Notes: generated by a model from the sequence alone, not told the origin. A DNA stretch of 64,000 nt from an uncultured Atribacterota bacterium (GCA_964570785.1 CAZMZG010000003.1:87-64086), one strand, 5' to 3'; positions 18,550 through 35,757 are shown, counted from the stretch's first letter. A program made the numbers and translations.

Positions 18550-19191
18550 ATGAGTGATATTCTCGAACAAATTGCTAAAGAATTATTTGCGGGTAATGCA
18601 AAAGCTGTGAGCGAACTAACCCAGAAAGCGCTTGATGAAGGTTTTTCGCCACAGGAAGTTCTTAATGGCGGTTTGATAAAGGGTATGAACCAGGTTGGAG
18701 AAAAGTTTAAGGCAAACGAGATTTATGTTCCGGAAGTACTGATTGCTGCCCGAGCTATGAAGGCAGGCATGGAAATCCTGAAACCCAAACTTGCAGAGAC
18801 TGGCGTAGAACCGGTGGCTAAACTTGTTATTGGCACCGTGAAGGGTGACCTTCACGATATCGGCAAGAATCTGGTAGCCATGATGATGGAAGGAGCAGGA
18901 TTTGAAGTAGTTGATCTGGGTATTGATGTACCTGCTGAAAAGTTCATTCAGGCCATTAAAGAACACAAGCCTCAGCTAGTTGGTATGTCGGCTTTACTTA
19001 CCACTACCATGATTCAAATCAGAGAGAACCTCAAGGCTTTTCAAGAAGCTGGAGTTAGGGATCGGGTTAAAGTCATGATTGGCGGTGCTCCGGTTACTCA
19101 AAAATTTGCCGACGAAGTTAGTGCTGATGGTTATGCGCCAGACGCTGCATCAGCAGTAGATAAAGCTAAAGAGCTTTTGAGCCTTAATTAA
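18550..19191 (+). CDS. Small corrinoid (B12-binding) protein of the MtaC/MtbC/MttC type
   Basis: DxHxxG (GDLHDIGKN), SALLTTT and GGAPV motifs of the cobalamin-binding Rossmann domain, plus an N-terminal helical cap. Confidence 0.85.
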   Translation: MSDILEQIAKELFAGNAKAVSELTQKALDEGFSPQEVLNGGLIKGMNQVGEKFKANEIYVPEVLIAARAMKAGMEILKPKLAETGVEPVAKLVIGTVKGDLHDIGKNLVAMMMEGAGFEVVDLGIDVPAEKFIQAIKEHKPQLVGMSALLTTTMIQIRENLKAFQEAGVRDRVKVMIGGAPVTQKFADEVSADGYAPDAASAVDKAKELLSLN

Positions 19192-21065: not shown

Positions 21066-22052
21066 TTGGAATGCGATTTCCTGGTGATAGGTGCTGGACC
21101 AGCGGGTCTTTCTCTTGGAGAAAAGCTGGCTGGCTATGGGGAAGTCTTAATTCTCGAGAAGGATAACAAGATCGGAGGGCTTGCTGCTACCTTAGGTTGT
21201 AAGGCTCGTCAGAGCTGCCTTTATTGTGGAATCTGCAGGAACACAGACCTGATAAGACGAGTGGCCAAGTTCCAGTTTCCGATACTTTGCTCGAGAGATA
21301 TTTTGGGAGTAGAACGATCCGTTGAGGGGTTTCGAATTTTTACCAATCGTGAGGAGATAAAAACCAGATACGTGGCAATTGCTACTGGAGCTGAACCTTT
21401 TGATGCCAGGAAACTCCCTAATCTGGGTTACGGCAGATTACAGGGCGTTTTTACTGGATTGGATATTGAACAAGCCATAAACAGTGGCGAAATATTTCGA
21501 CTTCTTCCAGAACGAGGGAAAGTTGCTTTTGTACAGTGTGTTGGTTCGCGTAGTTTTAAAGAAAAACGAGGTTACTGTTCACAGATCTGTTGTCGCTATG
21601 CCTTGAGGGCTCTGGATTTTTTGAGTTACTTTTTGCCAAGCCTTGAGTTCAAGATGTTTTATATGGACCTCCAGATCTTTGGTCCCAAAAGCTGTTATCT
21701 TTGGGAAGTAGCTCGAAGCAAGGTGTTGTTGATAAGGTCCATACCCTTCCGAATAGAGGGAGAGAATGGAAGCTTAGAAGTTTTTTATGAAGATGAAAAT
21801 GGTCAGGCAGTCAAGGAAGAATTCGACCGGGTGGTCCTTTCCATAGGTCTGTCTTCCGGAAGCTCGACCAAAAACCTGGCTCGAGCTTTTTACCTTGAGC
21901 TCGATGACTGGGGATTTATTAAAAATTTTGGTGGAGGCAGGACCAGTAACCCGGGTGTTTTTGTGTGTGGCACGGCAGGAGGTCCCAAAGATGTGGAAAC
22001 CACTATTTTTGAGGCTTATCAGGTTGCAGAAAGTATACTTAACTTGAGATAG
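21066..22052 (+). CDS. Short HdrA-like flavoprotein (thioredoxin-reductase fold with HdrA Cys motif)
   Basis: GAGPAGLS dinucleotide motif, FVQCVGSRSFKEKRGYCSQICCRYA (HdrA CxGxR...CSxxCC signature), C-terminal GVFVCGTAGGPKD. Confidence 0.7.
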   Translation: MECDFLVIGAGPAGLSLGEKLAGYGEVLILEKDNKIGGLAATLGCKARQSCLYCGICRNTDLIRRVAKFQFPILCSRDILGVERSVEGFRIFTNREEIKTRYVAIATGAEPFDARKLPNLGYGRLQGVFTGLDIEQAINSGEIFRLLPERGKVAFVQCVGSRSFKEKRGYCSQICCRYALRALDFLSYFLPSLEFKMFYMDLQIFGPKSCYLWEVARSKVLLIRSIPFRIEGENGSLEVFYEDENGQAVKEEFDRVVLSIGLSSGSSTKNLARAFYLELDDWGFIKNFGGGRTSNPGVFVCGTAGGPKDVETTIFEAYQVAESILNLR

Positions 22053-22066
22053 CGGGATGATGGAAA

Positions 22067-23485
22067 TTGAAAAAAGTACTTGTATTATTCCGTCCTGAAT
22101 ATGCACGCGTGAAGCCCTTACTCGATGCCATCGGTGATTTTTCGAAAGAACTGGACCTGCAAGTTTACTCCTGCTCAGAGTGGTTAGACAAGGTAAATAA
22201 AAGCATGCAGGACTTTGAAAAAGTTTTTTTGTTGGTTGAAGATATTGAAGCCAATATCGAGTTGTTGTCTGAGTTTTGTGATTCAGTAGAAAACCTTGAA
22301 AAATTTAAGATTTTTGGGCTTCCCCCAGGTGTGGTTTCACCTCAACTGGTTGCCTGGTGGAAAAATTATTTCCGGGAGGAGCTTGTTTTAGGGCGTGATT
22401 CCCCGGTTAAAAGCGCTTTTTTAAAGCCGGAGAAGAGGGTGCTGGTCGTTGCTGAAGAAAATGAAAACACAGAGAAAGTAGAAAAAGCTCTTCAGAAAAA
22501 GAAAATACCTTTCTTTATTACCAGGAAAAAAGTGGCTATTTCCCGCGATGGAATTAATTTTAAAATTACTCACCATCCGGATGGCGAGCTGTGTTTTGGG
22601 GCAGTGATTTTCTTACCAAAAAAGCGAATACTCTCTTTCGGTTTCCCTCGAGAGGTTGAAGATACAGGGAGAGCGTTTTTTGTGGATGAATTATCACGGA
22701 AATATAACCATCGTAATTTCTGGAAAAAGAGTGTTGCCTTCCTGGTGCACGAGCTTGCTTCTCCCTTACAGTGGAGGAAGGCTCTCTGCTGGTCTGTCCG
22801 TATTCGCAGGGATTTTTGTTCGGAAGTTCTCTTTTTGTGTGAACAGGTTGGTGTTGCACTGGAAAACTCAGAACTGGCTTATCGAGAAGCAAGGCAAATC
22901 GGGGTTCGTTTTGAAAAAGTTCGATTTAAGAATTTTTCCTGCCAAGCCACTGAGAGCATGCAGAAAATCATCCTTAAGTTTGTTTCGGAAAAGGACCTTC
23001 GCGAAGCCTCATACCTGGTGGATTGGCTGGTTGTTGTGCCTTCTTTTGAGGTGCAGCCCATAGCGTTAGAGAAATACTTTATGATTGACCGTGGAAACCT
23101 GAGAGTTGCCCCGCTTCCCAATCCAGTCATCGATAAGTATTCTACCTGCTGGAGGGGTGTTTTTTGTGCTCCTCTTGAGGAGACTGGCAAGGAGTGGGAA
23201 CATTTGGTGCATTCGGTGATGCAGTATCTGGAGAAAGGGCAGTTGAAACTGAAAGAACGTGGTTCTGTTGATGAAGAGAAATGCGTACTTTGTTTGACCT
23301 GTTTGCGCTCCTGCCCCTTTGGGGCCGTAAAAATAGAGGGAGAGAACAAGCGCAAAAAAGCCATGATAGATTGGACTCTTTGTCAGGGATGTGGTATCTG
23401 CACTTCTCTGTGCCCTGCTGGTGCGATAAAGATTGTGGACTTCAAAAATGGTCAGTACCTTTTTGGTCCGCGTTTGTGGGGTTGA
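22067..23485 (+). CDS. Degenerate HdrA-like protein retaining only the C-terminal 2x[4Fe-4S] ferredoxin domain
   Basis: Aligns by eye with the second HdrA unit of 25921-30402, but GxGxxG is VVAEENE and the CVGSR/CSxxCC Cys residues are lost. The C-terminus keeps CVLCLTCLRSCP and CQGCGICTSLCP. Confidence 0.55.
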   Translation: MKKVLVLFRPEYARVKPLLDAIGDFSKELDLQVYSCSEWLDKVNKSMQDFEKVFLLVEDIEANIELLSEFCDSVENLEKFKIFGLPPGVVSPQLVAWWKNYFREELVLGRDSPVKSAFLKPEKRVLVVAEENENTEKVEKALQKKKIPFFITRKKVAISRDGINFKITHHPDGELCFGAVIFLPKKRILSFGFPREVEDTGRAFFVDELSRKYNHRNFWKKSVAFLVHELASPLQWRKALCWSVRIRRDFCSEVLFLCEQVGVALENSELAYREARQIGVRFEKVRFKNFSCQATESMQKIILKFVSEKDLREASYLVDWLVVVPSFEVQPIALEKYFMIDRGNLRVAPLPNPVIDKYSTCWRGVFCAPLEETGKEWEHLVHSVMQYLEKGQLKLKERGSVDEEKCVLCLTCLRSCPFGAVKIEGENKRKKAMIDWTLCQGCGICTSLCPAGAIKIVDFKNGQYLFGPRLWG

Positions 23486-23490
23486 TAGGC

Positions 23491-23877
23491 ATGAGACTGG
23501 TAGCTCTTGGTTGTGAAAGGAATGGTTATCCGGCGCTTTTACGCTATTTCCATAGGGTTTCTTTGCCGTCGGGATGGGAACTGAAGGAACTTTCTGTAAT
23601 TCCCTGTCTGGGGTTTATCAGAGAAGAGACAATTTTTTCTATTTTGGAAGAAAAAGCTGATGTTTTGTTGCTGGCTGGCTGTCCGCTGGATGCCTGTAAA
23701 AACGTTAAAGGTAGTGATGTTGGCTTGCGTAAAGTGACCAGGGTCAATGCTCTTCTTGAAGAAGCGCAAGTAAACAAGAAGGTGGCTCTGGCTTTAGTTA
23801 CTCCTGACAAGACCGGTGAAATAGAAAGAATGCTTACCGAGATCTTTGGCTTTTTTGGAGGTTCAAATAAACGATGA
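23491..23877 (+). CDS. Divergent MvhD/FlpD-like protein
   Basis: LVALGCERNG...VIPCLG...AGCPLDACKN is colinear with the canonical MvhD at 30399 (AFLCHWCSY...VPCSG...SGCHPGDCHY). ATG 23491 is 5 nt after the preceding stop. Confidence 0.55.
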   Translation: MRLVALGCERNGYPALLRYFHRVSLPSGWELKELSVIPCLGFIREETIFSILEEKADVLLLAGCPLDACKNVKGSDVGLRKVTRVNALLEEAQVNKKVALALVTPDKTGEIERMLTEIFGFFGGSNKR

Positions 23878-24524
23878 TTGTTGGTGAAAGAAAACCCCTC
23901 CCTGAGATAGTAAAACTTTTAGATGGTTTTAAAAAAGTGCTGGTTCTGGGTTGCGGAACCTGTGTTACTGTTTGTATGTCGGGTGGTGAAAAGGAAGCCA
24001 AAGAACTTGCCTCCCTGCTGAGGCTTAAAGGTTTTGATGCTTGGAGCGCCACGGTGGAGAGACAGTGCGAGCCAGAGTTTAACCAGCTAATTAGAGAAGA
24101 AGTTGAAAGAGCGGAAGCAATCCTTTCTCTGGCCTGCGGGATCGGAGTGCAGGCTTTAGCGGAACTTTATTTTCAAAAACCAGTCTATCCTGCTTTGAAC
24201 ACCACTTTTATGGGATTACCTGTTGAACAGGGTCTGTGGGAAGAGCGGTGTGCTGGTTGTGGCGACTGTATAGTCCATCTTTTTGGAGGTATCTGTCCGA
24301 TAGCTCGTTGTGCTAAGAGTCTTCTGAATGGTCCCTGTGGTGGTTCCAAAAATGGTAAGTGCGAAGTAAAGCCTGAACGTGATTGTGCTTGGCAACTTAT
24401 TTTTGAACGGCTCAAGGCCTTAGGCAAGGTCGAGCAACTTTTGCGGGTCGAGCCTCCCAAGGATTGGTCATATTCGCGTTACGGTGGGCATCGTAAAATG
24501 GTAAGGGAGGATGTCAGACTGTGA
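23874..24524 (+). CDS. metV: Methylene-THF reductase small Zn/Fe-S subunit MetV (MTHFR C-terminal-like domain)
   Basis: LLNGPCGGSKNGKCE hallmark and Cys-rich GCGTCVTVC / CAGCGDC segments. ATGA overlap with the upstream gene. Confidence 0.85.
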   Translation: MIVGERKPLPEIVKLLDGFKKVLVLGCGTCVTVCMSGGEKEAKELASLLRLKGFDAWSATVERQCEPEFNQLIREEVERAEAILSLACGIGVQALAELYFQKPVYPALNTTFMGLPVEQGLWEERCAGCGDCIVHLFGGICPIARCAKSLLNGPCGGSKNGKCEVKPERDCAWQLIFERLKALGKVEQLLRVEPPKDWSYSRYGGHRKMVREDVRL

Positions 24525-25447
24525 GCTGGCTACAAAAGGTGCTTGAGGAAGGAAACTTTGCGGTTACCTGTGAAATTGGCCCGCCAAAAAGCAGTGATTT
24601 TTCGGTGGTTACCAAAAAGTGCGATTGGGTAAGAAATTTTGTAGATGCGGTGAATGTGACCGACAATCAGACTGCTATTGTAAGGATGTCAAGCTTTGCC
24701 AGTTGTTTGATTGCTTCTCGCCAGAATGTTGAACCCATCATGCAGATGGTATGCAGAGATAGAAACCGCATTGCTTTGCAGAGTGACTTTTTGGGAGCCT
24801 GTGCTCTGGGTATAGAAAACTTTCTTTGCTTGAGTGGTGATCATCAGAGCATGGGTAATCATCCTCAGGCAAAAAATGTTTTTGATGTGGATTCAATACA
24901 GCTTTTGCAAATTTTTAAGAATATGCGCGATGAGAAAGTTTTTCAAAATGGCGAACCGATTAAAGGAGAGATCAAAGCTTTTCTTGGGGCAGGAGCAAAT
25001 CCCTTTGCTGATCCTCTGGAGTTGAGGGTGTTGCGACTGGCCAAGAAAATTGAGGCCGGAGCTCAGTTTATTCAGACGCAAGCGGTTTTTGATCTGGAAA
25101 GATTTGCAAGGTGGATGGAAGAGGTGAGGGAATGGGGCTTGCATCGCAAAGCTTTTATTATGGCTGGAGTGATTCCTGTTAAGTCTGTTCGTGCTCTGAA
25201 ATATATGAAGGAAGAAGTACCTGGACTTGAGATTCCTGACTATTTCTTGGAAAGGATGCGAAAAGCTAAGGATCCAAAGGAGGAAGGGGTACAGATTTGT
25301 ACAGAAATCATTAACGAAGTGCAAAAGATAAAAGGAGTAAGCGGTGTGCATATTATGGCTATCGCTTGGGAAAGTGTTGTACCCGAGATTGTCAAGAGAT
25401 GTGGTCTATACCCAAGACCGGTGAGAGAGGTAAAGAGAAATGAGTGA
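24521..25447 (+). CDS. metF: 5,10-methylenetetrahydrofolate reductase
   Basis: 308-aa MTHFR TIM-barrel sequence (VTCEIGPPK, VNVTDNQTAIVRMSS, FIQTQAVFD). GTGA overlap with metV. Confidence 0.9.
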   Translation: MSWLQKVLEEGNFAVTCEIGPPKSSDFSVVTKKCDWVRNFVDAVNVTDNQTAIVRMSSFASCLIASRQNVEPIMQMVCRDRNRIALQSDFLGACALGIENFLCLSGDHQSMGNHPQAKNVFDVDSIQLLQIFKNMRDEKVFQNGEPIKGEIKAFLGAGANPFADPLELRVLRLAKKIEAGAQFIQTQAVFDLERFARWMEEVREWGLHRKAFIMAGVIPVKSVRALKYMKEEVPGLEIPDYFLERMRKAKDPKEEGVQICTEIINEVQKIKGVSGVHIMAIAWESVVPEIVKRCGLYPRPVREVKRNE

Positions 25448-25934
25448 AGCGAAACTTCTTGATCACCAGTTTAAATATCGGATTGCTTCTCGGCCTGGAG
25501 GTGAGGGGCTGCTTGCTTGTTTTGCCTGTGGGGTTTGTACAGCAGCCTGCCCGGTGAGTGAAGTTGAAAAGGACTTTAACCCGCGTCGGATCATCCATCA
25601 AATTTTGCTTGGCGAGAGTGAAGAGCTTTTGCGGTCTGAACGCATGTGGTTGTGTGTGGGTTGCTATCGTTGCAGTGCTCACTGCCCACAGGATGTTGAG
25701 TTTACCAACCTTTTGAAAGTGTTGCGAGAACTTGCTGTAGAAGAAGGTACCGTTTCTGTGGAATGGAAAAAAGTAATTGATGAAGTCGACCGCAGAACTC
25801 AAGAATTACGACGCAAACTCATCAAGTATCTCTGGAATAAAGGAATTAATTCTCTGGGAGAGTTTGAGAGGTTTTATCAGAGAGAAATTGCAAAGCTGGA
25901 TTGGATTAAAGGGGATAGTGATGATGCACGGTAA
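25440..25934 (+). CDS. hdrC: HdrC-like 2x[4Fe-4S] protein
   Basis: CFACGVCTAACP and CVGCYRCSAHCP motifs in a 164-aa protein. The start overlaps the metF stop by 8 nt. Confidence 0.7.
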   Translation: MSEAKLLDHQFKYRIASRPGGEGLLACFACGVCTAACPVSEVEKDFNPRRIIHQILLGESEELLRSERMWLCVGCYRCSAHCPQDVEFTNLLKVLRELAVEEGTVSVEWKKVIDEVDRRTQELRRKLIKYLWNKGINSLGEFERFYQREIAKLDWIKGDSDDAR

Positions 25935-28900
25935 AACCCGAGGTAGCGTGATGGTGGTTGGAGGAGGAATAGCAGGCATCCAGAGCGCTCTGGATCTGGC
26001 CAATGCAGGTTTCAAGGTCTATTTGGTAGAGGATTCAACTGCTATTGGAGGTCTTATGGCGAGGCTGGATAAGACCTTTCCAACCAACGATTGCGCAATG
26101 TGCATTCTTTCTCCGAAGCTCGTTGAGTGTGGTAGACATCTGAATATAGAGGTTATTACCTGTGCCAGCTTGGAGTCTGTTGAGGGGGTACCTGGTGATT
26201 TCCGAGTCAAGGTCAGACGCAAACCCCGTTATGTTGATCCTTTGAAGTGCACTGGATGTGGTGATTGTGCAGAGGTTTGCCCGGTAAGCTTGTCTAACGA
26301 TTTTGAGGGCGGTTTGAGCAAGAAAAAGGCTATTTACCGTCTTTTCCCCCAAGCCTTTCCCAGTGCTTTTGCAATCGAAAAAAAAGGTTTACCTAACTGC
26401 CAGGCAGCCTGCCCCCTGGAACAAAAAGCTCAGGGTTATGTGGCTTTGATTCGGGAAGGAAAATTTGAAGAAGCCTTACAAACGGTACGTATGGATAATC
26501 CTTTTCCTGGAATTTGTGGGCGAGCCTGTCATCATCCTTGTATGGAAGATTGCCAGCGTGGACTTCTTGATGAACCAGTTGGTATTCCTTACTTGAAAAG
26601 ATTTTTAGCAGATTATGAAGTTAGAAATAACTTGAAGCCTGTTTTGGGCAAGCAAGAGGATAAAGGCAAGAAGGTAGCCATTATTGGAGCTGGTCCCAGT
26701 GGATTGAGTTGTGCTTATTTTCTGGTTAGAAAAGGTTATCAGGTTTGTGTTTATGAAGCCAAAGAGCAACCTGGAGGTATGATGAGTTACGGCATACCTC
26801 CTTATCGCTTGCCCCGTGATGTTGTGAAATATGAAATTGAGCTCCTGAAAGAACTGGGGATTAACTTTGTTTTTGGCAAGGCCTGGGGTAAAGATTTCGG
26901 AATTGATGATCTTTTCAGAGAGGGCTATGCCGCTTTATATGTTGCTTGCGGAGCCTGGCAGACTATAAAACTGGGCATCGAAGGCGAAGACTACCCCGAA
27001 GTTATGGATGGACTTGACTATCTGATCAAAGTTAACAGTTCTCAGGAAGTGCCTCAGGCCGAAGAGGTTGTAGTCATTGGTGGGGGAAACGTGGCTATTG
27101 ACTGTGCACGTTCCGCTTTGCGAAAGGGAGCGAAAAAGGTTTCTGTTTACTATAGGCGTTCCCGAGAAGAAATGCCGGCAAGAGCGGAGGAAGTAGAAGA
27201 AGCCCTGGAAGAGGGGGTTGAATTTTATTTTTGCGCGGCACCTAAGAGGTTTATAAAGCGAAATGGAAGAGTAATTCTGGAGTTCAACGCGGTTCGCTTA
27301 TGTGCTCCTGATGCTTCAGGAAGAAGGAAGCCAGAAATCGTGCCTGATGTGGTTTACGAAGTGGAAGCAGACCTTTTCCTGGTGGCAATAGGTCAGCGGG
27401 TGCGGATACCCGAAGGGAAATTAGAGCTTACCGGTTGGGGAACTATTAAGGTTAATGAGGAAATGCAGACTTCTTTCAAGGGTGTTTTTGCTGGAGGAGA
27501 TGCAGTGCTCGGTCCGGCTACGCTGGTTGAGGCCATTGCTCATGGAAAAAGAGCTGCTCGGGCTATTGATGCTTATCTTCAGGGAAAAGAAATTCGAGAT
27601 TTTGAAAAACGTAAGGCTCCTATTAACATACCCTGGCAGGAACCCAAGAAGCTTCGAGTTGGCTTAAAAAAACTGGATCCCCGGGAAAGGGTTTTAGGGT
27701 TTTATGAGGTGGTCAGAGGTTATACTGAAGAGGAAGCAAAGGAAGAAGCTCGACGTTGTCTTTCCTGTGGTGGCTGTTCGGAGTGTATGCAATGTGTTTC
27801 CGCCTGTCAGAGAGAGGCCATTTTGCATCAGGATTCTGAGGAGATCCTGGAGATCGCGGTTGGCGCGGTTATCTTTGCCAGCGGAACTTCAGTTATTGAC
27901 CCTGCCCAAAAATATAGGGAGTTTGGATATCGGAAGTTTGCTAATGTGATTACCAGTTTGGATTTTGAACGAATATTAAGTGCTTCTGGTCCCACTCAGG
28001 GCAAAGTGGTTCGCCCTTCAGATGACAAAGTGCCCCGCAAAATCGCTTTTGTACAGTGTGTAGGATCCAGAGATGTAAAGCGCGGCAAGCCTTATTGTTC
28101 TGCTGTTTGCTGTATGTATGCCATCAAAGAGGCTCTGGTGGCCAGGGAACACTTGCTTATTGAAGAAAGGGAGGAAGCGCTATGTGAGTGTGGAATAGAC
28201 ACTGTTGCCCATAGCTTTGGAAAAGACCCTGGTGCTGAGGGTTCGCAGCTGGATGTAGCTATTTTTATGATTGACATGCGTTCACCGGGAAAAGATTTTG
28301 AACGTTACTTTGAACGCGCCAAAGAAGAGGGTATTCGCTTTATAAGGAGCAAAGTGGGTAAAATAGAAGAACTGGACAATGGGGATTTGAGGGTTTACTT
28401 TGTTGATGAAAGTGGTTGCTCCCGGGAAGAGATTTTTGATTTGGTGATTCTTTCGGTGGGCTTTGAGGTCTCTTCTTATAATCGAGAAATGTTTGCTAAA
28501 GCAGGAGTAGCCCTGCAGGACAATGGATTTCCTTACACCGATGCACTTGACAAAACTTTGACTATGCAGGATGGTGTTTTTGTCTGTGGCACAGCTTCGG
28601 GACCCAAGGATATACCGGAAACAGTTGTTGAGGCCAGCGCAGCAAGTTGCAATGTTTCTTCCTTATTGGATGAGGCGCGTTTTTCAGAAATTACTTACAA
28701 GCAGTATCCTCCAGAGCGTAATGTAGAAATTGAGCCTTTAAAAATAGGTGTTTTTGTATGTCATTGCGGAATTAACATTGGGGGAGTAGTAAATGTAAAA
28801 GAAGTTGTTGACTGGGTTAAGGATTTGCCTGGAGTGATTTATGCTGAGGAAAATTTGTATACTTGCTCTCAGGATACTCAAGAACGAATTAAGCAGAAGA

Positions 28901-30402
28901 TCGTGGAGTTAGGAATTAACCGGGTGGTGGTGGCTTCCTGTTCTCCAAGGACACATGAACCTCTTTTTAGAGAAACCCTGCGCGAGGCAGGTCTTAATCC
29001 CTATCTTTTTGAGATGGCCAACATTCGGGATCAGTGTTCCTGGGTGCATCAACGAACACCTCAGATGGCCACTGAGAAAGCTAAGGAACTAGTTTCCATG
29101 GCAATTGCAAAAGTTTCTCTTAAGCGCCCCCTACAGCCAGCTTTCCTTTCAGTTGAAAAATCGGTTTTGATAATAGGCGGTGGCTTGAGCGGGATGACTG
29201 CGGCCCTGGAAGCTCGCAAACAGGGAGTCAAAGTTTTTCTGGTGGAGAAGGAACCTGAGCTGGGTGGTTATGCTTCTAAATTTGAGTGCTGGTTTACGCC
29301 TTTTGGAGAGGATATCACCGATAGAATTAATGAGTTGAAGAGCAAGATTTTGGAAGACCCTGGTATAGAGGTGTTTCTCAATTCTCGCGTTTCAGAAATT
29401 AATGGATTTGTAGGCAATTTCGAGTCGGTTATTTGTATTGGGGATGAGAAGAAAAAATTGAAGCACGGAGCCTTAATTGTTGCTACTGGAGGCATAGAGT
29501 ATCTCCCTCAGAAGGGAGAGTTTGGTTATGGTCTGGACCCGAGAATTGTGACTCAGTCCGAGCTCGAACATAGCTTCGAGAAGGTACCTTCTTTCAAACG
29601 GGTGGTAATGATTCAATGTGTGGGTTCCAGAAACGATGACCATCCCTGGTGTAGTAGGACTTGTTGTTCGAGAACTATACGCAATGCCCTGAGGCTAAAG
29701 GAAATAAACCCTGAAATTGAAGTTTTTGTCCTTTATAGAGACATTCGAACTTTTGGTTTCTTGGAAGAGCTGTATCGTAAGGCTCGTGAGAAGGGCATTA
29801 TTTTTGTGCGTTTTGAGGACAATAAACCTCCCCAGGTTGCCATAGATGATCAGGAAAAGATAATTGTAAGAGTATTTCTCTCTTCTTTGGGGGAAGAGGT
29901 TCTTTTTTCTCCAGACCTAGTGGTCCTTTCCACCGGCATCATGCCCCAAGATGGAAATCGAGAACTTGCCAAAAAGCTTAAAGTTCCTTTGAATCAGGAT
30001 GGTTTCTTCCTGGAGGCTCATGTTAAATTGCGACCAGTAGATTTTGCTACTGACGGTATTTTTGTTTGTGGTCTTGCTCATAGTCCAAAATTTGCCCATG
30101 AATGTGTGTTGCAGGCTAAGGCAGCTGTTTCTCGCATGATGACCGTGCTCAGCAAGGAAAAAATCACCGCAGAGGCCGAAGTAGCTATTGTGGATGAGCA
30201 AAAATGCACTGGTTGTGGAGATTGCGAGAGGCTGTGCCAGTTTGGAGCTGTGAAAGTGAATTCGGAAAGAAAAATTGCTGAAGTTAACTCGGCTCTTTGC
30301 AAGGGATGTGGTTTATGCAGTGCTTCCTGCAAAAGTGGCGCTATTAAAGTCCAAGGTTTCGCTCCTGAACAGATTATGGCGGAGGTGGAATATCTTTTAT
30401 GA
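25921..30402 (+). CDS. hdrA: Giant HdrA-GltD/NfnB-HdrA fusion flavoprotein (HdrL-like)
   Basis: 1493 aa from ATG 25921. Unit 1: GGGIAG and FPTNDCAMC. Inserted ferredoxin half: CTGCGDCAEVCP. GltD-like insert 26389-27740: IIGAGPSGL, VIGGGNVAIDCA, FAGGDA. Then CLSCGGCSEC...C and FVQCVGSRD...CSAVCC. Unit 2 from 28738: GVFVCHCGINIGG, CSPRTHEP, IIGGGLSG, IQCVGSRNDDHPWCSRTCC, and terminal CTGCGDCERLC / CKGCGLCSASC. Confidence 0.8.
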   Translation: MMHGKTRGSVMVVGGGIAGIQSALDLANAGFKVYLVEDSTAIGGLMARLDKTFPTNDCAMCILSPKLVECGRHLNIEVITCASLESVEGVPGDFRVKVRRKPRYVDPLKCTGCGDCAEVCPVSLSNDFEGGLSKKKAIYRLFPQAFPSAFAIEKKGLPNCQAACPLEQKAQGYVALIREGKFEEALQTVRMDNPFPGICGRACHHPCMEDCQRGLLDEPVGIPYLKRFLADYEVRNNLKPVLGKQEDKGKKVAIIGAGPSGLSCAYFLVRKGYQVCVYEAKEQPGGMMSYGIPPYRLPRDVVKYEIELLKELGINFVFGKAWGKDFGIDDLFREGYAALYVACGAWQTIKLGIEGEDYPEVMDGLDYLIKVNSSQEVPQAEEVVVIGGGNVAIDCARSALRKGAKKVSVYYRRSREEMPARAEEVEEALEEGVEFYFCAAPKRFIKRNGRVILEFNAVRLCAPDASGRRKPEIVPDVVYEVEADLFLVAIGQRVRIPEGKLELTGWGTIKVNEEMQTSFKGVFAGGDAVLGPATLVEAIAHGKRAARAIDAYLQGKEIRDFEKRKAPINIPWQEPKKLRVGLKKLDPRERVLGFYEVVRGYTEEEAKEEARRCLSCGGCSECMQCVSACQREAILHQDSEEILEIAVGAVIFASGTSVIDPAQKYREFGYRKFANVITSLDFERILSASGPTQGKVVRPSDDKVPRKIAFVQCVGSRDVKRGKPYCSAVCCMYAIKEALVAREHLLIEEREEALCECGIDTVAHSFGKDPGAEGSQLDVAIFMIDMRSPGKDFERYFERAKEEGIRFIRSKVGKIEELDNGDLRVYFVDESGCSREEIFDLVILSVGFEVSSYNREMFAKAGVALQDNGFPYTDALDKTLTMQDGVFVCGTASGPKDIPETVVEASAASCNVSSLLDEARFSEITYKQYPPERNVEIEPLKIGVFVCHCGINIGGVVNVKEVVDWVKDLPGVIYAEENLYTCSQDTQERIKQKIVELGINRVVVASCSPRTHEPLFRETLREAGLNPYLFEMANIRDQCSWVHQRTPQMATEKAKELVSMAIAKVSLKRPLQPAFLSVEKSVLIIGGGLSGMTAALEARKQGVKVFLVEKEPELGGYASKFECWFTPFGEDITDRINELKSKILEDPGIEVFLNSRVSEINGFVGNFESVICIGDEKKKLKHGALIVATGGIEYLPQKGEFGYGLDPRIVTQSELEHSFEKVPSFKRVVMIQCVGSRNDDHPWCSRTCCSRTIRNALRLKEINPEIEVFVLYRDIRTFGFLEELYRKAREKGIIFVRFEDNKPPQVAIDDQEKIIVRVFLSSLGEEVLFSPDLVVLSTGIMPQDGNRELAKKLKVPLNQDGFFLEAHVKLRPVDFATDGIFVCGLAHSPKFAHECVLQAKAAVSRMMTVLSKEKITAEAEVAIVDEQKCTGCGDCERLCQFGAVKVNSERKIAEVNSALCKGCGLCSASCKSGAIKVQGFAPEQIMAEVEYLL

Positions 30403-30821
30403 GTGAAGAATGGGAACCTAAAATAGTGGCCTTTCTTTGTCACTGGTGCAGCTACGCAGGTGCTGACCTGGCGGGAGTTAGTCGTCTCCAGTATCCTCCA
30501 AACATCAGAGTTATCAGAGTTCCCTGTTCGGGAGCAGTTAATCCTCTTTACATTCTTAAAGCTTTACGGGAAGGAGCGGATGGAGTGCTGGTTTCGGGTT
30601 GCCATCCGGGGGACTGTCACTATATTGGGGGCAATTATTTTGCGCGCAGAAAATTTCTGGTTTTGAAGGAAATACTCAAATGGGTTGGTGTTGAAGAGGA
30701 GAGAGTGCAGTTTTCGTGGGTTTCAGCTTCTGAAGGCCAAAAATTTTCTAAGGTAGTGGAGAAAGTAGTTGAAGGAGTCAAAAGGGTTGGTCCTGCATCC
30801 AGGCTGGTAAAGGAGTTTTGA
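30399..30821 (+). CDS. mvhD: MvhD/FlpD-type [2Fe-2S] electron-transfer subunit
   Basis: IVAFLCHWCSYAGADLAG, RVPCSG and SGCHPGDCHY motifs. ATGA overlap with the hdrA fusion. Confidence 0.85.
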   Translation: MSEEWEPKIVAFLCHWCSYAGADLAGVSRLQYPPNIRVIRVPCSGAVNPLYILKALREGADGVLVSGCHPGDCHYIGGNYFARRKFLVLKEILKWVGVEEERVQFSWVSASEGQKFSKVVEKVVEGVKRVGPASRLVKEF

Positions 30822-30824
30822 GTC

Positions 30825-31769
30825 ATGTTTTCTGGGGAACTGCGAGAAATTGCCAGAAAGTTGCTTTTGGAGAAAGAAGTGGACATTATTATCGGTTACC
30901 AGTGGGGTTCTCTTCCTTTCCGAACTTCGCCTTTATTTATTGAAGAACCTCGGGATGTTGAAAAGATGATCTTTAATCCGCTATGTTCAGTTAATCTTTC
31001 CAGGTACCTTCAGCGCTATAGAAATAGCGGTAAAAAACTGGGTATCGTTGCTAAGGGATGCGACGCGCGATCGTTGGTAGTTCTTCTTCTTGAGGGACAA
31101 TTTGAGCGTGAACATCTTAAAATAATCGGTGTGCCATGCAAGGGCGTCTTGAACTGGAAGAAAATTCGGGATTCCTTTGAGACCTTTCCTCGGGATGTGG
31201 TTTTCTGGGGGGAAGATTTTTTTGTTGTCAACGGAAAGAAGTATCATTATCGGGATTTTATGGAGAACACCTGCCTCCGCTGTAAATATCCCAACCCCCC
31301 TCTCTATGACTTTTTGGTTGGAGAACCCCTCGAAGAGAGTAATTGGGAAAAGTTTGGTCTGGACTATGTCCAGGATATGGATTCGAAAACCGCCGAGGAA
31401 CGTTTTGAAGAGCTTTACAGGGAGCTCAGTTCCTGTATTCGCTGTTATGCCTGCCGCGAGGCATGTCCTCTCTGTTACTGTAAAGAGTGTTTTGTGGAAA
31501 GTACCCGTCCTCGCTGGACAACTCCCTGTCCAACTTTCTCGGACAACTTTGTTTTTCATATAGGTCGCGCCATGCATCTTGCTGGGCGCTGTGTAGAATG
31601 TGGAGCTTGTGAGCGGTCTTGCCCGGTGGGGATCCCCATTGCACTTTTAACTATTAAAATAGAAAACATTGTTAAGGAACATTTTGGGTTTGAAGCAGGA
31701 CTGAGTCTTGAAGAAGAAGCTCCTTTGCTTACCTACAGGGAAAATGACCCTGACGAATTTATAAAGTGA
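30825..31769 (+). CDS. Fe-S protein, FlxC-like
   Basis: CIRCYACREACPLCYC and CVECGACERSCP cluster motifs in 314 aa. Positioned between mvhD and the next two module genes. Confidence 0.55.
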   Translation: MFSGELREIARKLLLEKEVDIIIGYQWGSLPFRTSPLFIEEPRDVEKMIFNPLCSVNLSRYLQRYRNSGKKLGIVAKGCDARSLVVLLLEGQFEREHLKIIGVPCKGVLNWKKIRDSFETFPRDVVFWGEDFFVVNGKKYHYRDFMENTCLRCKYPNPPLYDFLVGEPLEESNWEKFGLDYVQDMDSKTAEERFEELYRELSSCIRCYACREACPLCYCKECFVESTRPRWTTPCPTFSDNFVFHIGRAMHLAGRCVECGACERSCPVGIPIALLTIKIENIVKEHFGFEAGLSLEEEAPLLTYRENDPDEFIK

Positions 31770-31782
31770 GAGGTTAGGGATA

Positions 31783-32784
31783 ATGAAAAAGGGTTACTGG
31801 GAGAAGGAAAGATTTAGAGAGTGGGTTGCTGCTGAAAAGGGTAGGATCTGGCTTACAGAGAGACTGAAGAATAAATATCCTGACCTTTTTATAGATCTGG
31901 ACAGAGAGTTGCGAACTGTGAAAGAAGCTTTCTATCCCCAGTGGCGTAAGGTTTGTCGCTTCTTGTGGGATAAAAAAAGGTGGTTGGTGGAAGACTTACC
32001 GGACGAGAAGAAGCCGGTGCCTTCTCTTGTTTTTGCTTTGCCCTGTGAGGCAAGGGCGGTTCTGGATGTTTTAGATAAGATTTTTATTAAGAAAGAGCCC
32101 TCGGATGGTTTTTACCTTTCGCGTCGTGCCTCCTCCTTAGTAGTGATTGTAGCTTGTCTTTTTCCTGAAGAGGTCTGTTTCTGCAATTGGGTGGGTGGCG
32201 GGCCTTTTTGGCATACTGATAATTCTCCCTTCCTGGTACCCTTGGAAAAAGGGTTGTATCTGGAAGATCCTGTTGGTGTTTTTCCGCCAACTTATGAAGA
32301 AGCAAGTGTTGAGCTTAACGAAAAAGTTGAAAAACTAAAGGAACAGGCTGAACTCTCTCTGGGAGAGCCATTTACTATAGACAGAGATTTTCCAAAAAAG
32401 CTTTATGATAATTTCTACAGTGAAAGCTGGGAGAAACTTGCTCAAAAGTGTCTTAATTGCGGAGCATGCACCTTTTTGTGCCCTACCTGTTACTGTTTTG
32501 ATCTTGTGGTGGATGGGGCTTTGAGGGGTTATCAGCTTTGCACCTGGGATAGCTGTATGTTTGCCAAATTCACTCTCCATGCTTCAGGTCATAACCCGCG
32601 CCCCGGCTATACAGAGAGAGTCCGTCAGAGGGTTCTTCATAAGTTTTCCTATTTCCCGATGCGCGAAGGTAGCTTTGGATGTGTTGGTTGTGGAGCTTGT
32701 ATAACTGCCTGTCCGGTTAACTGGGACATTAGGGAAGTGATAAAAGAGATGTTCCAAGAGGTGGGTGACAAAAAAGGTGAGTGA
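31783..32784 (+). CDS. Fe-S protein, FlxB / sulfhydrogenase-beta / AsrA-like
   Basis: CLNCGACTFLCPTCYC and CVGCGACITACP motifs in 333 aa. Confidence 0.6.
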   Translation: MKKGYWEKERFREWVAAEKGRIWLTERLKNKYPDLFIDLDRELRTVKEAFYPQWRKVCRFLWDKKRWLVEDLPDEKKPVPSLVFALPCEARAVLDVLDKIFIKKEPSDGFYLSRRASSLVVIVACLFPEEVCFCNWVGGGPFWHTDNSPFLVPLEKGLYLEDPVGVFPPTYEEASVELNEKVEKLKEQAELSLGEPFTIDRDFPKKLYDNFYSESWEKLAQKCLNCGACTFLCPTCYCFDLVVDGALRGYQLCTWDSCMFAKFTLHASGHNPRPGYTERVRQRVLHKFSYFPMREGSFGCVGCGACITACPVNWDIREVIKEMFQEVGDKKGE

Positions 32785-33616
32785 AGCTAAAAATATTTAT
32801 CTTCCCCGGCTTTGTGTTATAAAAGAAGTGATTCCAGAAACCCCCGATATAAAAACTTTTCGGGTGGAAATTCCTGATGATTTTCACTTTGATTATATTC
32901 CGGGTCAGTTTGCAGAAGTTTTCCTTCCCGGCAAGGGAGAAGCTCCTTTCTCGATAGCTTCTTCGCCCACTCAAAGAGGGATTATCGAGTTTAGTATCAA
33001 AAGGGTAGGATTAGTTACTGAAGCTATTCACCAGCAGGTTCCAGGAAGTCAGATAGGTATTCGAGGTCCTTATGGAAATGGCTTTCCCCTTAAAGAGCTG
33101 GAAGGAAAGGATCTGCTTTTTGTTGGAGGTGGTATCGGCCTGGCTCCTTTGCGATCGCTCATCAACTATGTTCTTGACTCAGACCATCGTCCTCACTTCG
33201 GAAGGGTTATCATTCTTTATGGAGCCAGGACCCCTCAAGATTTGGTTTTTAAGTGGGAACTCGAAAGGTGGTCAAAAAGAGATGATGTGGAAGTTTTGAT
33301 TACTGTGGATAAGGGAGACCATACCTGGAGCGGCAAGGTGGGCTTGGTACCCCAGGTGCTAAAAGAGTGTATTGCAATAGATGATAGCGAGCCACCCACT
33401 TCCATTGTTTGCGGACCACCAATTATGATCAAATTCACTATTAAGGCGTTGCTTGAGATGGGTTGTTGTCCTCACGACATCATCACCACTTTGGAGATGA
33501 GAATGAAATGTGGCCTGGGAAAGTGTGGTCGTTGTAATATTGGTCCTTATTACGTATGTAAAGATGGCCCGGTTTTTAGATATGACCTTCTCAGCACACT
33601 GCCAGAGGAATACTGA
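32765..33616 (+). CDS. FAD/NAD(P)H-binding oxidoreductase with C-terminal [2Fe-2S] (FlxA / HydG / AsrB / PyrK-like)
   Basis: Ferredoxin-reductase-type segments (GQFAEV, APFSI, GGGIGLAPL) and C-terminal CGLGKCGRCNIGPYYVCKDGPVF. The start is uncertain: GTG 32765 or GTG 32777. Confidence 0.8.
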   Translation: MTKKVSEAKNIYLPRLCVIKEVIPETPDIKTFRVEIPDDFHFDYIPGQFAEVFLPGKGEAPFSIASSPTQRGIIEFSIKRVGLVTEAIHQQVPGSQIGIRGPYGNGFPLKELEGKDLLFVGGGIGLAPLRSLINYVLDSDHRPHFGRVIILYGARTPQDLVFKWELERWSKRDDVEVLITVDKGDHTWSGKVGLVPQVLKECIAIDDSEPPTSIVCGPPIMIKFTIKALLEMGCCPHDIITTLEMRMKCGLGKCGRCNIGPYYVCKDGPVFRYDLLSTLPEEY

Positions 33617-33625
33617 GGTCAAGCT

Positions 33626-34960
33626 ATGTTGTATCAGCAAGCTCTACGTTACCTGTATGGTTTGATTAACTATGAGAAAGTCGGCTTTTCCTATTCTGAT
33701 TTAAAACTCGAGCGCATGCAGGAGTTGATGGATCGTCTGGGGAACCCTCATTGCAAGGTACCAACTATCCTGATTGCTGGAACGAAAGGCAAAGGTTCTA
33801 CCTCCTACTTTCTGCACAGGTTATTTTCAGCCTATGGCTTTAGTTGTGGTCTTTATTCCAAACCCCATCTTGTGACCTATCGGGAGCGTATAAGAGTTAA
33901 CGATACCTTTATTGGTGAGGATGAGTTAGGATTGCTGATAAATCGCATTCAGCCCATTGTTGAGGAAATGGGTCGCAGATCTCCTTTGGGCAAACCCACT
34001 TATTTTGAGGTTTCAGTAGCTCTTGCTTTTCTTTACTTTCTCGAAAGAAAGGTTGATTTAGCTGTTTTTGAAGTTGGTTTGGGTGGGCGTCTTGATGCCA
34101 CCAATGTGTCTTGCCCGAGCTTAACTGCTATAACCCCAATTAGTATGGATCATATGGATGTTTTGGGAAATTCCGTAAAGGAGATTGCCAGAGAAAAAGC
34201 CGGCATTATTCGCCCTGGAGTAACTACTGTGTTGGCTCTGCAAAACCCAGAAGCCAGAAGAGTAGTCCTGGAGGTTGCATATTTGCGAAACTCTCCGGTG
34301 GTCCAGTTTGAGAAAGAGTGTCTCTTTGAGATTTTATCAAGAAGTTCCTCGGGTTCCCGGTTATGGTGGGAGGTAAAGGATTGGGGAAAAGGGGAGTCTT
34401 TGCTTCCTGTGCTGGGTGACCATCAGGTTTCTAATTTTTTGACGGCTCTGCTTATATTGCGGGAATGGGGTCTGGGTTTTCGAAGAGATGCGGTGGAAAG
34501 TGCACTTTCAGGAGTGAGCTGGCCGGGAAGAATCCAGATAATTTCGACTAACCCTTTGGTAGTTTTCGATGTGGCCCATAACCGCGATTCTTTTTTGGCT
34601 TTGCTTGACACTCTCCGCAGTTACCTGGGAATTGAAAAGAGTGTTTTTCTTCTAGGTTTTGTAAAGGGGAAAGACGTAGGTTCTATTGCAGAAGTTCTGG
34701 GTAGTTTTGCGGAGGCAATAGTTATTACCCAACCTTACACTCCTCGAGCTTTGGCGCCTGGTGATTTGATTTCCCTATTTGAAACAGTGGCTCCTGCTCT
34801 GGTTGTGAAAGACCCAGCAGTGGCTTACACTTTTGCAAGGGACCAGGCTGCAAAGAGAGGATTGCCCCTGGTTGTGGTTGGTTCTTTTTACCTGGCTCGG
34901 CTCTTTGGCGAAGAGATTAATCGGATTTTTAATATTAGTGAGGAGGTTGAATTATGCTGA
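33626..34960 (+). CDS. folC: Folylpolyglutamate synthase / dihydrofolate synthase
   Basis: IAGTKGKGST P-loop and Mur-ligase-like organisation; 444 aa. Confidence 0.9.
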   Translation: MLYQQALRYLYGLINYEKVGFSYSDLKLERMQELMDRLGNPHCKVPTILIAGTKGKGSTSYFLHRLFSAYGFSCGLYSKPHLVTYRERIRVNDTFIGEDELGLLINRIQPIVEEMGRRSPLGKPTYFEVSVALAFLYFLERKVDLAVFEVGLGGRLDATNVSCPSLTAITPISMDHMDVLGNSVKEIAREKAGIIRPGVTTVLALQNPEARRVVLEVAYLRNSPVVQFEKECLFEILSRSSSGSRLWWEVKDWGKGESLLPVLGDHQVSNFLTALLILREWGLGFRRDAVESALSGVSWPGRIQIISTNPLVVFDVAHNRDSFLALLDTLRSYLGIEKSVFLLGFVKGKDVGSIAEVLGSFAEAIVITQPYTPRALAPGDLISLFETVAPALVVKDPAVAYTFARDQAAKRGLPLVVVGSFYLARLFGEEINRIFNISEEVELC

Positions 34961-35757
34961 TTATCATCGGAGAACGTATCAATGCTACACGTAAGCCTAT
35001 AAGGGAGGCTTTGGAAAGAAAAGATGTGCAGTTTTTTGTTGAGGAGGCCAAAAAACAGGAACAGGCAGGAGCGCACTTTATAGATGTTAATGCTGGTACC
35101 GATGCCACTTCAGAAATTGAAAACCTACCCTGGTTGGTAGAAATAATTCAGGATGAGGTGGAAGTGCCTCTCTGCTTTGACTCTGCTAATGAGAAAGCGT
35201 TAGAGAGAGCTTTAAAAGTTTATAAAAAGAAAGGGTTGATTATTAACTCTTTTACGGCTGAGGAAGAAAAGATAAAAGCACTGCTACCCCTTGCTAAAGA
35301 GTGGAATGCTTACATAGTTGGTCTGGCCATGGGTGAAGGGGGAATACCCCAGACTGGTGAGGAGCGCATGAAATTGGTAGATAAATTGCTGGAAGCTGTG
35401 CATCTCTATGGCATCCCTGAGGAACGGCTTTTTATCGATCCTCTGGTTATTCCCGTTGGCACTGATTCTACTCAGGGGAAACTTTTTCTGGAAACTTTAA
35501 AGAGTATTAAAGATAAGTTTCCTGAAGTGAAGACGGTTTGTGGTTTGTCCAATGTTTCTTTTGGTTTACCAAACAGGAGGCTTCTAAACAGAACTTTTGC
35601 AGTGCTTTGTCTTGCTTTTGGCCTGGATGCAGCAATTATAGACCCCTTGGATAAGGAATTGATGGCTTCCATTTATGCTACCGAAGTGCTTTTGGGAATT
35701 GATGAGTTTTGTATGGGGTATCTTAACGCTTTCAGAGAGGGCAAGCTTAACCTTTAA
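34954..35757 (+). CDS. acsE: Methyl-THF:corrinoid methyltransferase (pterin-binding TIM barrel, AcsE/MeTr type)
   Basis: Colinear with Moorella AcsE as I recall it (MLIIGERIN..., FIDVNAG, LCFDS, INS, IDPLV, GLSNVSFG, NRTF). Overlaps the folC stop by 7 nt. Confidence 0.8.
   Translation: MLIIIGERINATRKPIREALERKDVQFFVEEAKKQEQAGAHFIDVNAGTDATSEIENLPWLVEIIQDEVEVPLCFDSANEKALERALKVYKKKGLIINSFTAEEEKIKALLPLAKEWNAYIVGLAMGEGGIPQTGEERMKLVDKLLEAVHLYGIPEERLFIDPLVIPVGTDSTQGKLFLETLKSIKDKFPEVKTVCGLSNVSFGLPNRRLLNRTFAVLCLAFGLDAAIIDPLDKELMASIYATEVLLGIDEFCMGYLNAFREGKLNL

Follow-up and report, generated by a model that had tools for sequence, protein, structure and literature searches.

The stretch of DNA analysed here, which we call the window, comprises 64,000 nucleotides of one strand from an uncultured Atribacterota bacterium (GCA_964570785.1 CAZMZG010000003.1:87-64086). 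The gene of interest, hdrA/hdrL (25921..30402, plus strand, like every feature below unless stated otherwise), encodes a first HdrA unit with a nested GltD module, followed by a second HdrA unit. It is a single open reading frame (ORF) that runs from an ATG at 25921 to a TGA at 30402, covering 4482 nt and 1493 amino acids (aa) with zero internal stops. A Shine-Dalgarno-like AAAGGGG motif lies 5' of the ATG, the start overlaps the 3' end of an hdrC-like gene by 14 nt, and the TGA overlaps the ATG of mvhD as ATGA, so that hdrL and mvhD are tightly coupled. A preliminary description of the locus had already read two HdrA units on one 1493-aa chain, which the uninterrupted ORF and the alignments of both units to HdrA bear out, and each motif it quoted is found where it was placed: GGGIAG, FPTNDCAMC, FAGGDA and both CVGSR...CC motifs, CTGCGDCAEVCP at residue 110 (nt 26248), CLSCGGCSECMQCVSAC at residue 613 (nt 27757), and likewise IIGAGPSGLSCA, VVIGGGNVAIDCA and the motifs of the N-terminal domain and of the terminal 2x[4Fe-4S] domain.

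Profile and PDB searches assign the domains with E-values of 1e-50 to 1e-283, far beyond chance, and the HdrA2 profile alone matches five stretches of the protein with 943 bits. When aligned to HdrA of M. marburgensis (8rvu_a), residues 10-154 correspond to HdrA 154-298 (the first half of the thioredoxin reductase-like (TrxR-like) domain plus the first half of the inserted ferredoxin), residues 618-742 to 300-423 (the second half of the inserted ferredoxin and TrxR), residues 933-1088 to 5-160 (the N-terminal domain), and residues 1253-1491 to 416-651. The protein thus departs from a canonical type I methanogen HdrA in that its domains are spread over two fused units and its inserted ferredoxin is interrupted.

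The first part of unit 1 (residues 8-154; 25942..26382) holds half of the TrxR-like FAD domain with GGGIAG, the DCAMC motif (Cys58/Cys61) and ferredoxin motif 1 (C110, C113, C116, C120). Its second part (residues 618-932; 27772..28716), which aligns to HdrA 300-423 and 418-557, holds ferredoxin motif 2 (C619, C622, C625, C629), the rest of the TrxR-like domain with its [4Fe-4S] motif (C713, C726, C730, C731), and the pair E683/K736. Cys61, the second Cys of DCAMC, is the equivalent of Cys197 of methanogen HdrA; the unit has neither an N-terminal domain nor a C-terminal ferredoxin. Once residues 155-608, the GltD body, are cut out, unit 1 becomes colinear with HdrA 143-557 with a nine-residue surplus at the junction only, and the proposed nesting of a GltD/NfnB-like unit inside the inserted ferredoxin is thereby confirmed. 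Conservation was followed in two family alignments, one of 22 sequences and one of 60 rows. Cys58, Cys61 and the four Cys of ferredoxin motif 1 are invariant in both; the smaller one shows no variation at any cluster Cys or at E683/K736, E1216 and K226, and for most of these positions the larger one agrees. A variable stretch of about 28 aa that carries two Cys (…EEREEALCECGIDTVAHSFGKDPGAEGSQ…; residues 748-775, 28162..28245) and is specific to the lineage is inserted into the TrxR domain of unit 1; of the 22 aligned sequences, the seven closest (50-86% identity) have it and the other 15 homologues do not.

An AlphaFold2 model of unit 1 (residues 1-932), built with the 60-sequence alignment, reached a mean predicted local distance difference test (pLDDT) of 88.6 and a predicted TM-score (pTM) of 0.85. 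It is poorly predicted at the loop 52-56, just before Cys58/61, and at residues 755-774 of the insertion region, where pLDDT falls below 50, and nowhere else. With Foldseek against the PDB, the middle part finds NfnA of NfnABC (9bov_A, E 5e-51, 44% identity, root-mean-square deviation 2.9 A), StnC (8oh5_C) and, at TM 0.78-0.81 (normalised to target, as below), NfnL/NfnB. The flanks find HdrA chains at TM 0.93 in alignments of about 917 columns that run across the insert, and both HdrA halves therefore close into one HdrA fold around the module.

The module itself consists of a GltD/NfnB-like body (residues 155-556; 26383..27588) with C160-x3-C164-P, C199/C203/C207/C211, K226, an FAD site (IIGAGPSG), an NAD(P)H site (VIGGGNVAID...YYRR) and FAGGDA, and of a separate segment (residues 579-617, RVGLKKLDPRERVLGFYEVVRGYTEEEAKEEARRCLSCG; 27655..27771) that carries C613 and C616. 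Profiles, PDB matches and fold all agree on the GltD/NfnB-like nature of this central region, as the preliminary description had proposed. Residues 157-625 match GltD/NfnB-like proteins; Pfam recognises Fer4_20 (residues 158-236) and Pyr_redox_2 (250-542); over residues 153-647 the NCBIfam model PRK12771 reaches 544 bits, above its cutoff of 516; and the best PDB matches are 9bov_A, 8oh5_C, 9n5u_A and 4ylf_B (residues 47-462, 1.2e-84), with 5jca_L matched as well. Like NfnB/NfnL of NfnAB (4ylf_B, 5jca_L), the module has the GltD fold, sites for FAD and NADPH, two [4Fe-4S] clusters and a YRR motif, and the YYRR that follows its second Rossmann strand resembles that of the NADPH enzymes NfnB and StnC.

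Judged from these alignments, the module is not a plain insert but is circularly permuted relative to NfnB. Residues 47-462 of T. maritima NfnB align to residues 160-556, while NfnB 5-43 (…EEALEEAQRCLQCP) aligns to residues 579-617 (…EEAKEEARRCLSCG), located after the module body; in the same manner, positions 30-111 of Pfam Fer4_20 fall at residues 158-236 and positions 4-41 at about 593-630. The first 40 or so residues of the GltD unit, with the first two Cys of its first cluster motif, sit after its body, and the CxxCxxxxCxxxCP motif is therefore split, with C613/C616 after the body and C160/C164 before it. Two glycines follow C616, and then comes HdrA ferredoxin motif 2; the eight Cys involved (C613, C616, C160, C164, C619, C622, C625, C629) are invariant in both family alignments. 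NfnB differs in having this motif contiguous, its N-terminal 45 residues in their place, and a Glu cluster ligand where Lys226 stands here; it also has a dedicated NfnA partner, whereas the PyrK-like protein encoded at 32765-33616 is much closer to sulfhydrogenase gamma than to NfnA. The permuted order is colinear in StnC, in NfnA of Bfu-type NfnABC and in PRK12771. By sequence and by fold, residues 157-625 match StnC (8oh5_C) and the NfnABC NfnA (9bov_A, 9n5u_A) best; these have the body followed by ...EEA..RCLxCG-C, as here, and the Lys found here as K226, and their cassette is likewise embedded in a larger iron-sulfur (Fe-S) protein. The invariant K226 aligns to StnC K170. Their host scaffold is nevertheless NuoG/HydA-like instead of HdrA, and StnC Cys114 is Ala or Val here. 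Since the flavin of this module in StnC is non-bifurcating (PMC10482914) and Lys226 is of the StnC type, the cassette would be an entry or exit module between NAD(P)H and Fe-S clusters rather than a second bifurcation site. Its permuted, StnC-like form suggests that one and the same insertable module has served more than once, in the Bfu as well as in the Hdr family of bifurcating enzymes.

Unit 2 comprises an N-terminal, MvhD-like domain (residues 933-1078; 28717..29154) that aligns to HdrA 5-160 and carries the invariant C947, C949, C982, C1007 and C1039; a TrxR-like FAD domain (residues 1079-1415; 29155..30165) with IIGGGLSG, E1216, R1254 and C1233, C1244, C1248 and C1249; and a C-terminal 2x[4Fe-4S] ferredoxin (residues 1416-1493; 30166..30399) that aligns to the HdrA C-terminus, with Pfam Fer4_7, Fer4_9 and Fer4_21 at 1422-1475. 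Taken alone, it aligns to HdrA 9-240 and 324-651, and the gap at HdrA 241-323 means that the inserted ferredoxin is skipped. A search of unit 2 for the DCxMC motif, which holds the Cys197 ligand, did not find it. Unit 2 had been described as a complete canonical HdrA without inserted ferredoxin; the absence of that ferredoxin stands, but the Cys197-equivalent is missing as well, so that "complete" overstates the case. Of the Glu/Lys signature, E683/K736 and E1216 are present. At position 1254 (nt 29680-29682), which is equivalent to Lys409 and would hold the "bifurcation" Lys of unit 2, 20 of the 22 sequences have Lys, whereas the protein of the window and its 86%-identical relative have Arg.

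Between them, the two units hold exactly one copy of each accessory element of the HdrA dimer. Because unit 2 lacks both the inserted ferredoxin and the Cys197-equivalent, the units are best read as complementary halves of one predicted pseudo-heterodimer. A recent tandem duplication of HdrA is ruled out, as the C-terminal TrxR halves of the two units are only 28% identical, which points to a fusion of divergent paralogues and fits the paralogue fusion proposed for archaeal type II HdrA (PMC12054007). The Cys motifs of the whole chain provide up to nine [4Fe-4S] sites: two each in the inserted ferredoxin, the GltD module, the TrxR domains (taken together) and the C-terminal ferredoxin, and one in the N-terminal domain. 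The earlier count of three predicted flavin sites plus a single NAD(P)H site was structurally right.

Proteins of this layout are common. Among 5.8 billion proteins searched, 7999 matched at E<=1e-50, and we inspected the best 120: nearly all are 1456-1518 aa long with 98-100% query cover, the exceptions being three short partial records and a subset of about 1650-1700 aa at about 75% cover in a single segment, from Thermoplasmatota and others. Identity is 92% and 85% for two Atribacterota proteins, 59-64% for other Atribacterota/Caldatribacteriaceae, and about 50% for Bacillota, Aerophobetes, WOR-3 and Limnochordia. When one genome per GTDB species was scanned, at least 600 matches resulted; the best 80 loci, to which the counts out of 80 below refer, encode nearly always near full-length proteins at 43-63% identity and come from Atribacterota, Clostridia, Syntrophales, Desulfobacterales, Acidobacteriota, Chloroflexota, Planctomycetota, Nitrospinaceae, Spirochaetes, SAR324, Armatimonadota, Thermotogae and Thermoplasmatota. 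Some loci (L005, 6107-11083; L023, L042, L051, L057, L063, L073) carry longer homologues, and in several the tblastn matches are spread over 5.8-6.7 kb, which suggests extra inserted domains, split genes or selenocysteine-interrupted ORFs.

In the window, the order of the genes around hdrL is fhs, a split HdrA-like pair, an mvhD-like gene, metV, metF, the hdrC-like gene, hdrL, mvhD, an FdhB-like gene, a beta-like gene, a gamma-like gene, folC and a gene for a pterin-binding protein, and the order at the locus of the closest relative is identical. Immediately upstream of hdrL lie metV (23874-24524; Pfam PF12225, E 2.8e-38), metF (24521-25447; NCBIfam PRK08645 and methylene-tetrahydrofolate (THF) reductase models, with PF02219 on the orthologue of locus L001) and the hdrC-like 2x[4Fe-4S] gene (25440..25934; NCBIfam CoB_CoM_SS_C at E 1.7e-23, below the family cutoff; Pfam Fer4_8 and Fer4_17). 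Immediately downstream lies mvhD (FlpD; 30399..30821; NCBIfam VhuD, E 8.8e-38; HdrA2 C-terminus). The genes for HdrC, MvhD, MetV and MetF are thus encoded with hdrA, as for HdrABC-MvhD-MetVF, a hexaheteromeric complex. This linkage extends well beyond the window: of the 80 GTDB loci, 68 have mvhD adjoining the hdrL homologue, with few exceptions directly 3', and 38 have both metV and metF beside it, mostly in the Moorella order hdrL-mvhD-metV-metF.

Three further genes follow mvhD and form a recurrent trio: an FdhB-like Fe-S protein (30825-31769; PDB 7bkb_E, 4e-28), a sulfhydrogenase-beta/AsrA-like protein (31783-32784; PDB 9nez_B, 7e-24) and a sulfhydrogenase-gamma/PyrK-like FAD-NAD(P)-[2Fe-2S] protein (32765-33616; PDB 9nez_C, 8.5e-61, versus 1e-14 to NfnA). 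The trio stands beside hdrL homologues of several phyla in 18 of the 80 loci, and in four of five loci fetched from more distant homologues; it is predicted to provide a second NAD(P)H-binding site in the putative complex. It occurs together with the metVF set in Atribacterota, some Bacillota and one Spirochaete. An hdrB gene (for the CCG-domain subunit with the noncubane cluster) was not found in the cluster by Pfam, nor in the 64-kb window by a six-frame motif scan. Applied to 86 fetched loci, the CCG regular expression returned HdrB-like ORFs in 41, and in none of the Atribacterota-type clusters; loci of this cluster type without hdrB are L001, L002, L003, L004, L007, L009, L048 and L052, and in most cases the HdrB-less form coincides with the trio. 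In other contexts the gene sits with hdrCB and lactate-utilisation genes (Aerophobetes), or with hdrCB, a [NiFe]-hydrogenase and beta/gamma genes (an archaeon). From such varied neighbourhoods, hdrL emerges as a portable core combined with different high-potential modules.

The closest described counterpart is found in Moorella thermoacetica. Reportedly, Mock et al. described in 2014 the HdrCBA-MvhD-MetVF methylene-THF reductase of this acetogen, whose HdrA is said to be Moth_1194. That HdrA, part of hdrCBA-mvhD-metVF, is a 162.8 kDa protein of 1487 aa with eight [4Fe-4S] clusters, three FAD and one NAD(P)H site; its N-terminal extra ferredoxin and TrxR-like domain are interrupted by a GltD domain, residues 922-1487 resemble methanogen HdrA without inserted ferredoxin, the Glu/Lys residues are E696/K750 and E1204/K1246, and the enzyme has an NADH:benzyl viologen activity of 190 U/mg (Kremp et al. 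2022, PMC9430772). Going by that description, the protein of the window is alike in architecture and metabolic setting: 1493 against 1487 aa, a C-terminal unit that starts at 933 against 922 and has an N-terminal domain and a C-terminal ferredoxin with no inserted one, a GltD domain that interrupts the N-terminal unit, E683/K736 and E1216 against E696/K750 and E1204, with position 1254 (Arg here) answering to K1246, and linkage to hdrC, mvhD and metVF. It differs in its host (Atribacterota against an acetogenic Firmicute), in the absence of hdrB from the window, in the order metVF-hdrC-hdrA-mvhD instead of hdrCBA-mvhD-metVF, and in the presence of the FdhB-like, sulfhydrogenase beta/gamma-like and split HdrA-like genes, of the 28-aa insertion and of Arg instead of Lys at 1254.

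Related proteins are known from sulfate reducers and archaea. HdrL was defined by Strittmatter et al. 2009 as an Hdr/glutamate-synthase fusion followed by mvhD (PMC2702500), the earlier assignment of our protein to the HdrL class was correct, and HdrABC/HdrL are abundant in S. fumaroxidans with sulfate (PMC5947623). The HdrL proteins of Desulfobacterium autotrophicum and Syntrophobacter fumaroxidans share with ours the large fusion of HdrA and glutamate synthase small subunit, followed by mvhD (PMC2702500, PMC5947623); they too are often beside an FdhB-like Fe-S protein and are a proposed NADH entry point. Their loci, however, are tied to dsr/hdrABC and sulfate reduction and not to metVF, and some contain selenocysteine. 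In ANME-1, a 500-aa NfnB-like insertion interrupts the inserted ferredoxin of HdrA9-11, and the fused HdrA pairs of ANME (HdrA3/4), with complementary N-terminal domain and Cys197, would each be their own heterodimer partner (Chadwick et al. 2022, PMC9012536). A 2025 survey calls the inserted form "type III HdrA" and, from models, proposes that its GltD domain keeps ferredoxin out and passes electrons from NADH on to the flavin (PMC12054007). The features of the ANME-1/Bathyarchaeota type III HdrA9-11 and of the type II HdrA3/4 are here found in one chain, so that, as far as sequence can tell, the layout is a combined type II and type III. Compared with the ANME type II fusions, the order of the units is reversed, the one without N-terminal domain coming first; compared with archaeal type III HdrA, the insertion site matches, but the host unit lacks the N- and C-terminal domains and is fused to a second HdrA.

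It follows that the protein is an Atribacterota member of a published and very widespread class (large HdrA/HdrL), and not a new kind of protein. The preliminary description had suggested that the nested topology and its coupling to metVF-hdrC might be unusual; neither is, because the topology is published (PMC9430772, PMC9012536) and metV and metF recur beside the homologues as counted above. What does go beyond the published accounts consulted, and seems worth recording, is the splice of a permuted StnC-type cassette, the HdrB-less type of cluster, and the conserved trio as candidate partners on the MvhD side. A literature search on Atribacteria with HdrA and MetF yielded no description of this cluster.

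In our view, the gene specifies the large HdrA (HdrL-type) subunit in a methylene-THF reductase of the Moorella type (Hdr-type, "type IV"), built from fused HdrA paralogues around a permuted cassette, and we give this reading, electron path included, a probability of roughly 0.7. It would most likely serve a MetVF-linked and perhaps bifurcating enzyme as the flavin/Fe-S core at which NAD(P)H is oxidised. In methanogen HdrA, free ferredoxin docks at the inserted ferredoxin, which is the low-potential exit, while MvhD together with the C-terminal ferredoxin is the entry. In the protein of the window, the two units would make up for each other's gaps, as the protomers do in the HdrA dimer of methanogens, unit 1 supplying Cys61 and the inserted ferredoxin, and unit 2 the cluster of the N-terminal domain and the C-terminal ferredoxin that would dock MvhD; both keep a predicted FAD site and a predicted TrxR-domain [4Fe-4S] cluster that would lead to HdrC. 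The permuted cassette, with one FAD, one NAD(P)H site and two predicted [4Fe-4S] clusters, StnC-like and Lys-liganded, is spliced in at the very place where ferredoxin docks in methanogens.

Starting from the domain content, topology, cofactor motifs, conservation and gene linkage set out above, we infer the path of the electrons, its direction, its possible bifurcation and the nucleotide used. NAD(P)H would be oxidised (or formed) at the GltD flavin, and single electrons would pass from the two GltD clusters to the two clusters of the inserted ferredoxin, then to the cluster of the N-terminal domain, probably held by three Cys of unit 2 and Cys61 of unit 1, and on to an HdrA flavin. From there, one branch would lead through the TrxR cluster to HdrC, MetV and MetF, where methylene-THF and methyl-THF are interconverted; the other would lead through the C-terminal ferredoxin of unit 2 to MvhD and to the FdhB-like and sulfhydrogenase beta/gamma-like proteins as probable partners, or to ferredoxin. 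All steps may run in reverse. That NAD(P)H at the GltD domain feeds the HdrA flavin is a published hypothesis for both Moorella HdrA and archaeal type III HdrA (PMC9430772, PMC12054007).

Several points weigh against this reading. Given that the inserted ferredoxin is the low-potential exit in methanogens, the published scheme of NAD(P)H feeding requires that the branches swap their roles, so that entry through the inserted-ferredoxin branch implies their repurposing. The "bifurcation" Lys of unit 2 is replaced by Arg here and in the closest relative; the window lacks hdrB, unlike the Moorella hexamer; YYRR looks of the NADPH type, whereas the sole enzyme data, from Moorella, concern NADH; and the match to Moorella HdrA was set by its published description instead of a direct sequence alignment. 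Finally, NADH-dependent bifurcation was not seen with the Hdr-type enzyme of Sporomusa ovata (PMC9430772).

This last point, together with the Arg at the Lys409-equivalent of unit 2 and the lack of hdrB in the 64-kb window, would suit an enzyme that does not bifurcate at all, in which electrons from NAD(P)H would travel from the GltD module along the Fe-S chain to HdrC and MetVF and so reduce methylene-THF, the HdrA flavins being ordinary relays or structural cofactors. Non-bifurcating homologues of HdrA do exist (sHdrA of the 6tjr_A type, matched here; PMC9430772), and the S. ovata enzyme shows no bifurcating coupling of NADH and methylene-THF. But we find such a wire unlikely: E683/K736 and E1216 are invariant and position 1254 is Lys in 20 of 22 relatives, the conserved branch of MvhD plus C-terminal ferredoxin would be superfluous for a linear path, and electron transfer from NADH to methylene-THF alone is strongly exergonic, so that the energetics of acetogens favour coupling (PMC9430772).

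A slightly more doubtful proposal has the low-potential branch end in the GltD module, which would form an Nfn-like confurcating site together with the PyrK-like gamma subunit; there, low-potential electrons from HdrA and electrons from NADH would together reduce NADP+. The whole would be an Hdr-wired transhydrogenase/methylene-THF reductase with two bifurcating flavins, an idea not far from the two bifurcation sites raised by Chadwick et al. (PMC9012536). The insertion lies exactly at the ferredoxin docking point of methanogen HdrA, the two [4Fe-4S] clusters of NfnB are a low-potential path (PMC10482914), and a PyrK/NfnA-related FAD-NAD-[2Fe-2S] gene lies three genes downstream and co-occurs in 18 of 80 GTDB loci. 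K226, however, is the Lys of StnC, whose flavin does not bifurcate, and not the Glu of NfnB; the gamma-like protein is far nearer to sulfhydrogenase gamma than to NfnA (8.5e-61 against 1e-14) and has a beta-like partner; and many homologues, reportedly including that of Moorella, lack the trio. That the ORF might be a frameshifted or chimeric joining of two or three genes can be dismissed, since nothing was found in its favour: there are zero stops in 4482 nt, AlphaFold2 is confident across the junctions, and nearly all of the 80 best genome and 120 best protein matches are of equal length and colinear, at about 1460-1500 aa in independent genomes and metagenomes of many phyla, among them those of the isolate Desulfotruncus arcticus and, as a complete genome, Candidatus Formimonas warabiya.

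To return to the methylene-THF reductase, the second redox partner of the Hdr-type enzyme has been sought since 2014, a question that counts for the energy balance of the Wood-Ljungdahl pathway in acetogens, sulfate reducers and many uncultured phyla of the subsurface. The cluster described here and its relatives encode candidate MvhD-side partners directly downstream, without HdrB, and so offer a compact and testable variant. It is conceivable, although we regard it as improbable, that where the cluster is HdrB-less, in Atribacterota and in some Bacillota and Spirochaetes, the MetVF-HdrC-HdrL-MvhD set and the FdhB-like and beta/gamma-like proteins, perhaps with the upstream split HdrA pair, form one supercomplex with two pyridine-nucleotide sites at opposite ends of the HdrA wiring. 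If this were true, the MvhD-side partner would be the long-sought second electron acceptor or donor module, coupling for example NADH, NADPH and methylene-THF, with or without ferredoxin.

The split HdrA-like pair consists of a 328-aa FAD/TrxR-like part (21066-22052) and a 472-aa C-terminal 2x[4Fe-4S] part (22067-23485), both partial matches to NCBIfam HdrA2, and is followed by the second mvhD-like gene (about 23491-23877; Pfam FlpD). These three upstream genes (21066-23877) are conserved in L001-L003, L007 and L009, that is, in other Atribacterota and one Bacillota metagenome-assembled genome. A scan for promoters and terminators between 18 and 36 kb gave counts that did not differ from those of shuffled sequence, and is therefore uninformative on operon boundaries. 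Further out, a gene for a B12-binding-domain protein (18550-19191) lies 5' of fhs, and a folC-like Mur-ligase gene and one for a pterin-binding (methyltransferase-type) protein lie downstream (33626-35757); the close relative L001 has glyA, nifU and a formate/nitrite transporter gene further upstream. Together, these genes suggest a gene island for folate/C1 metabolism or corrinoid methyl transfer. On the minus strand, an ORF at 37488-38747 has an orthologue in L001 that carries the Pfam domains of HydF, the [FeFe]-hydrogenase maturation GTPase.

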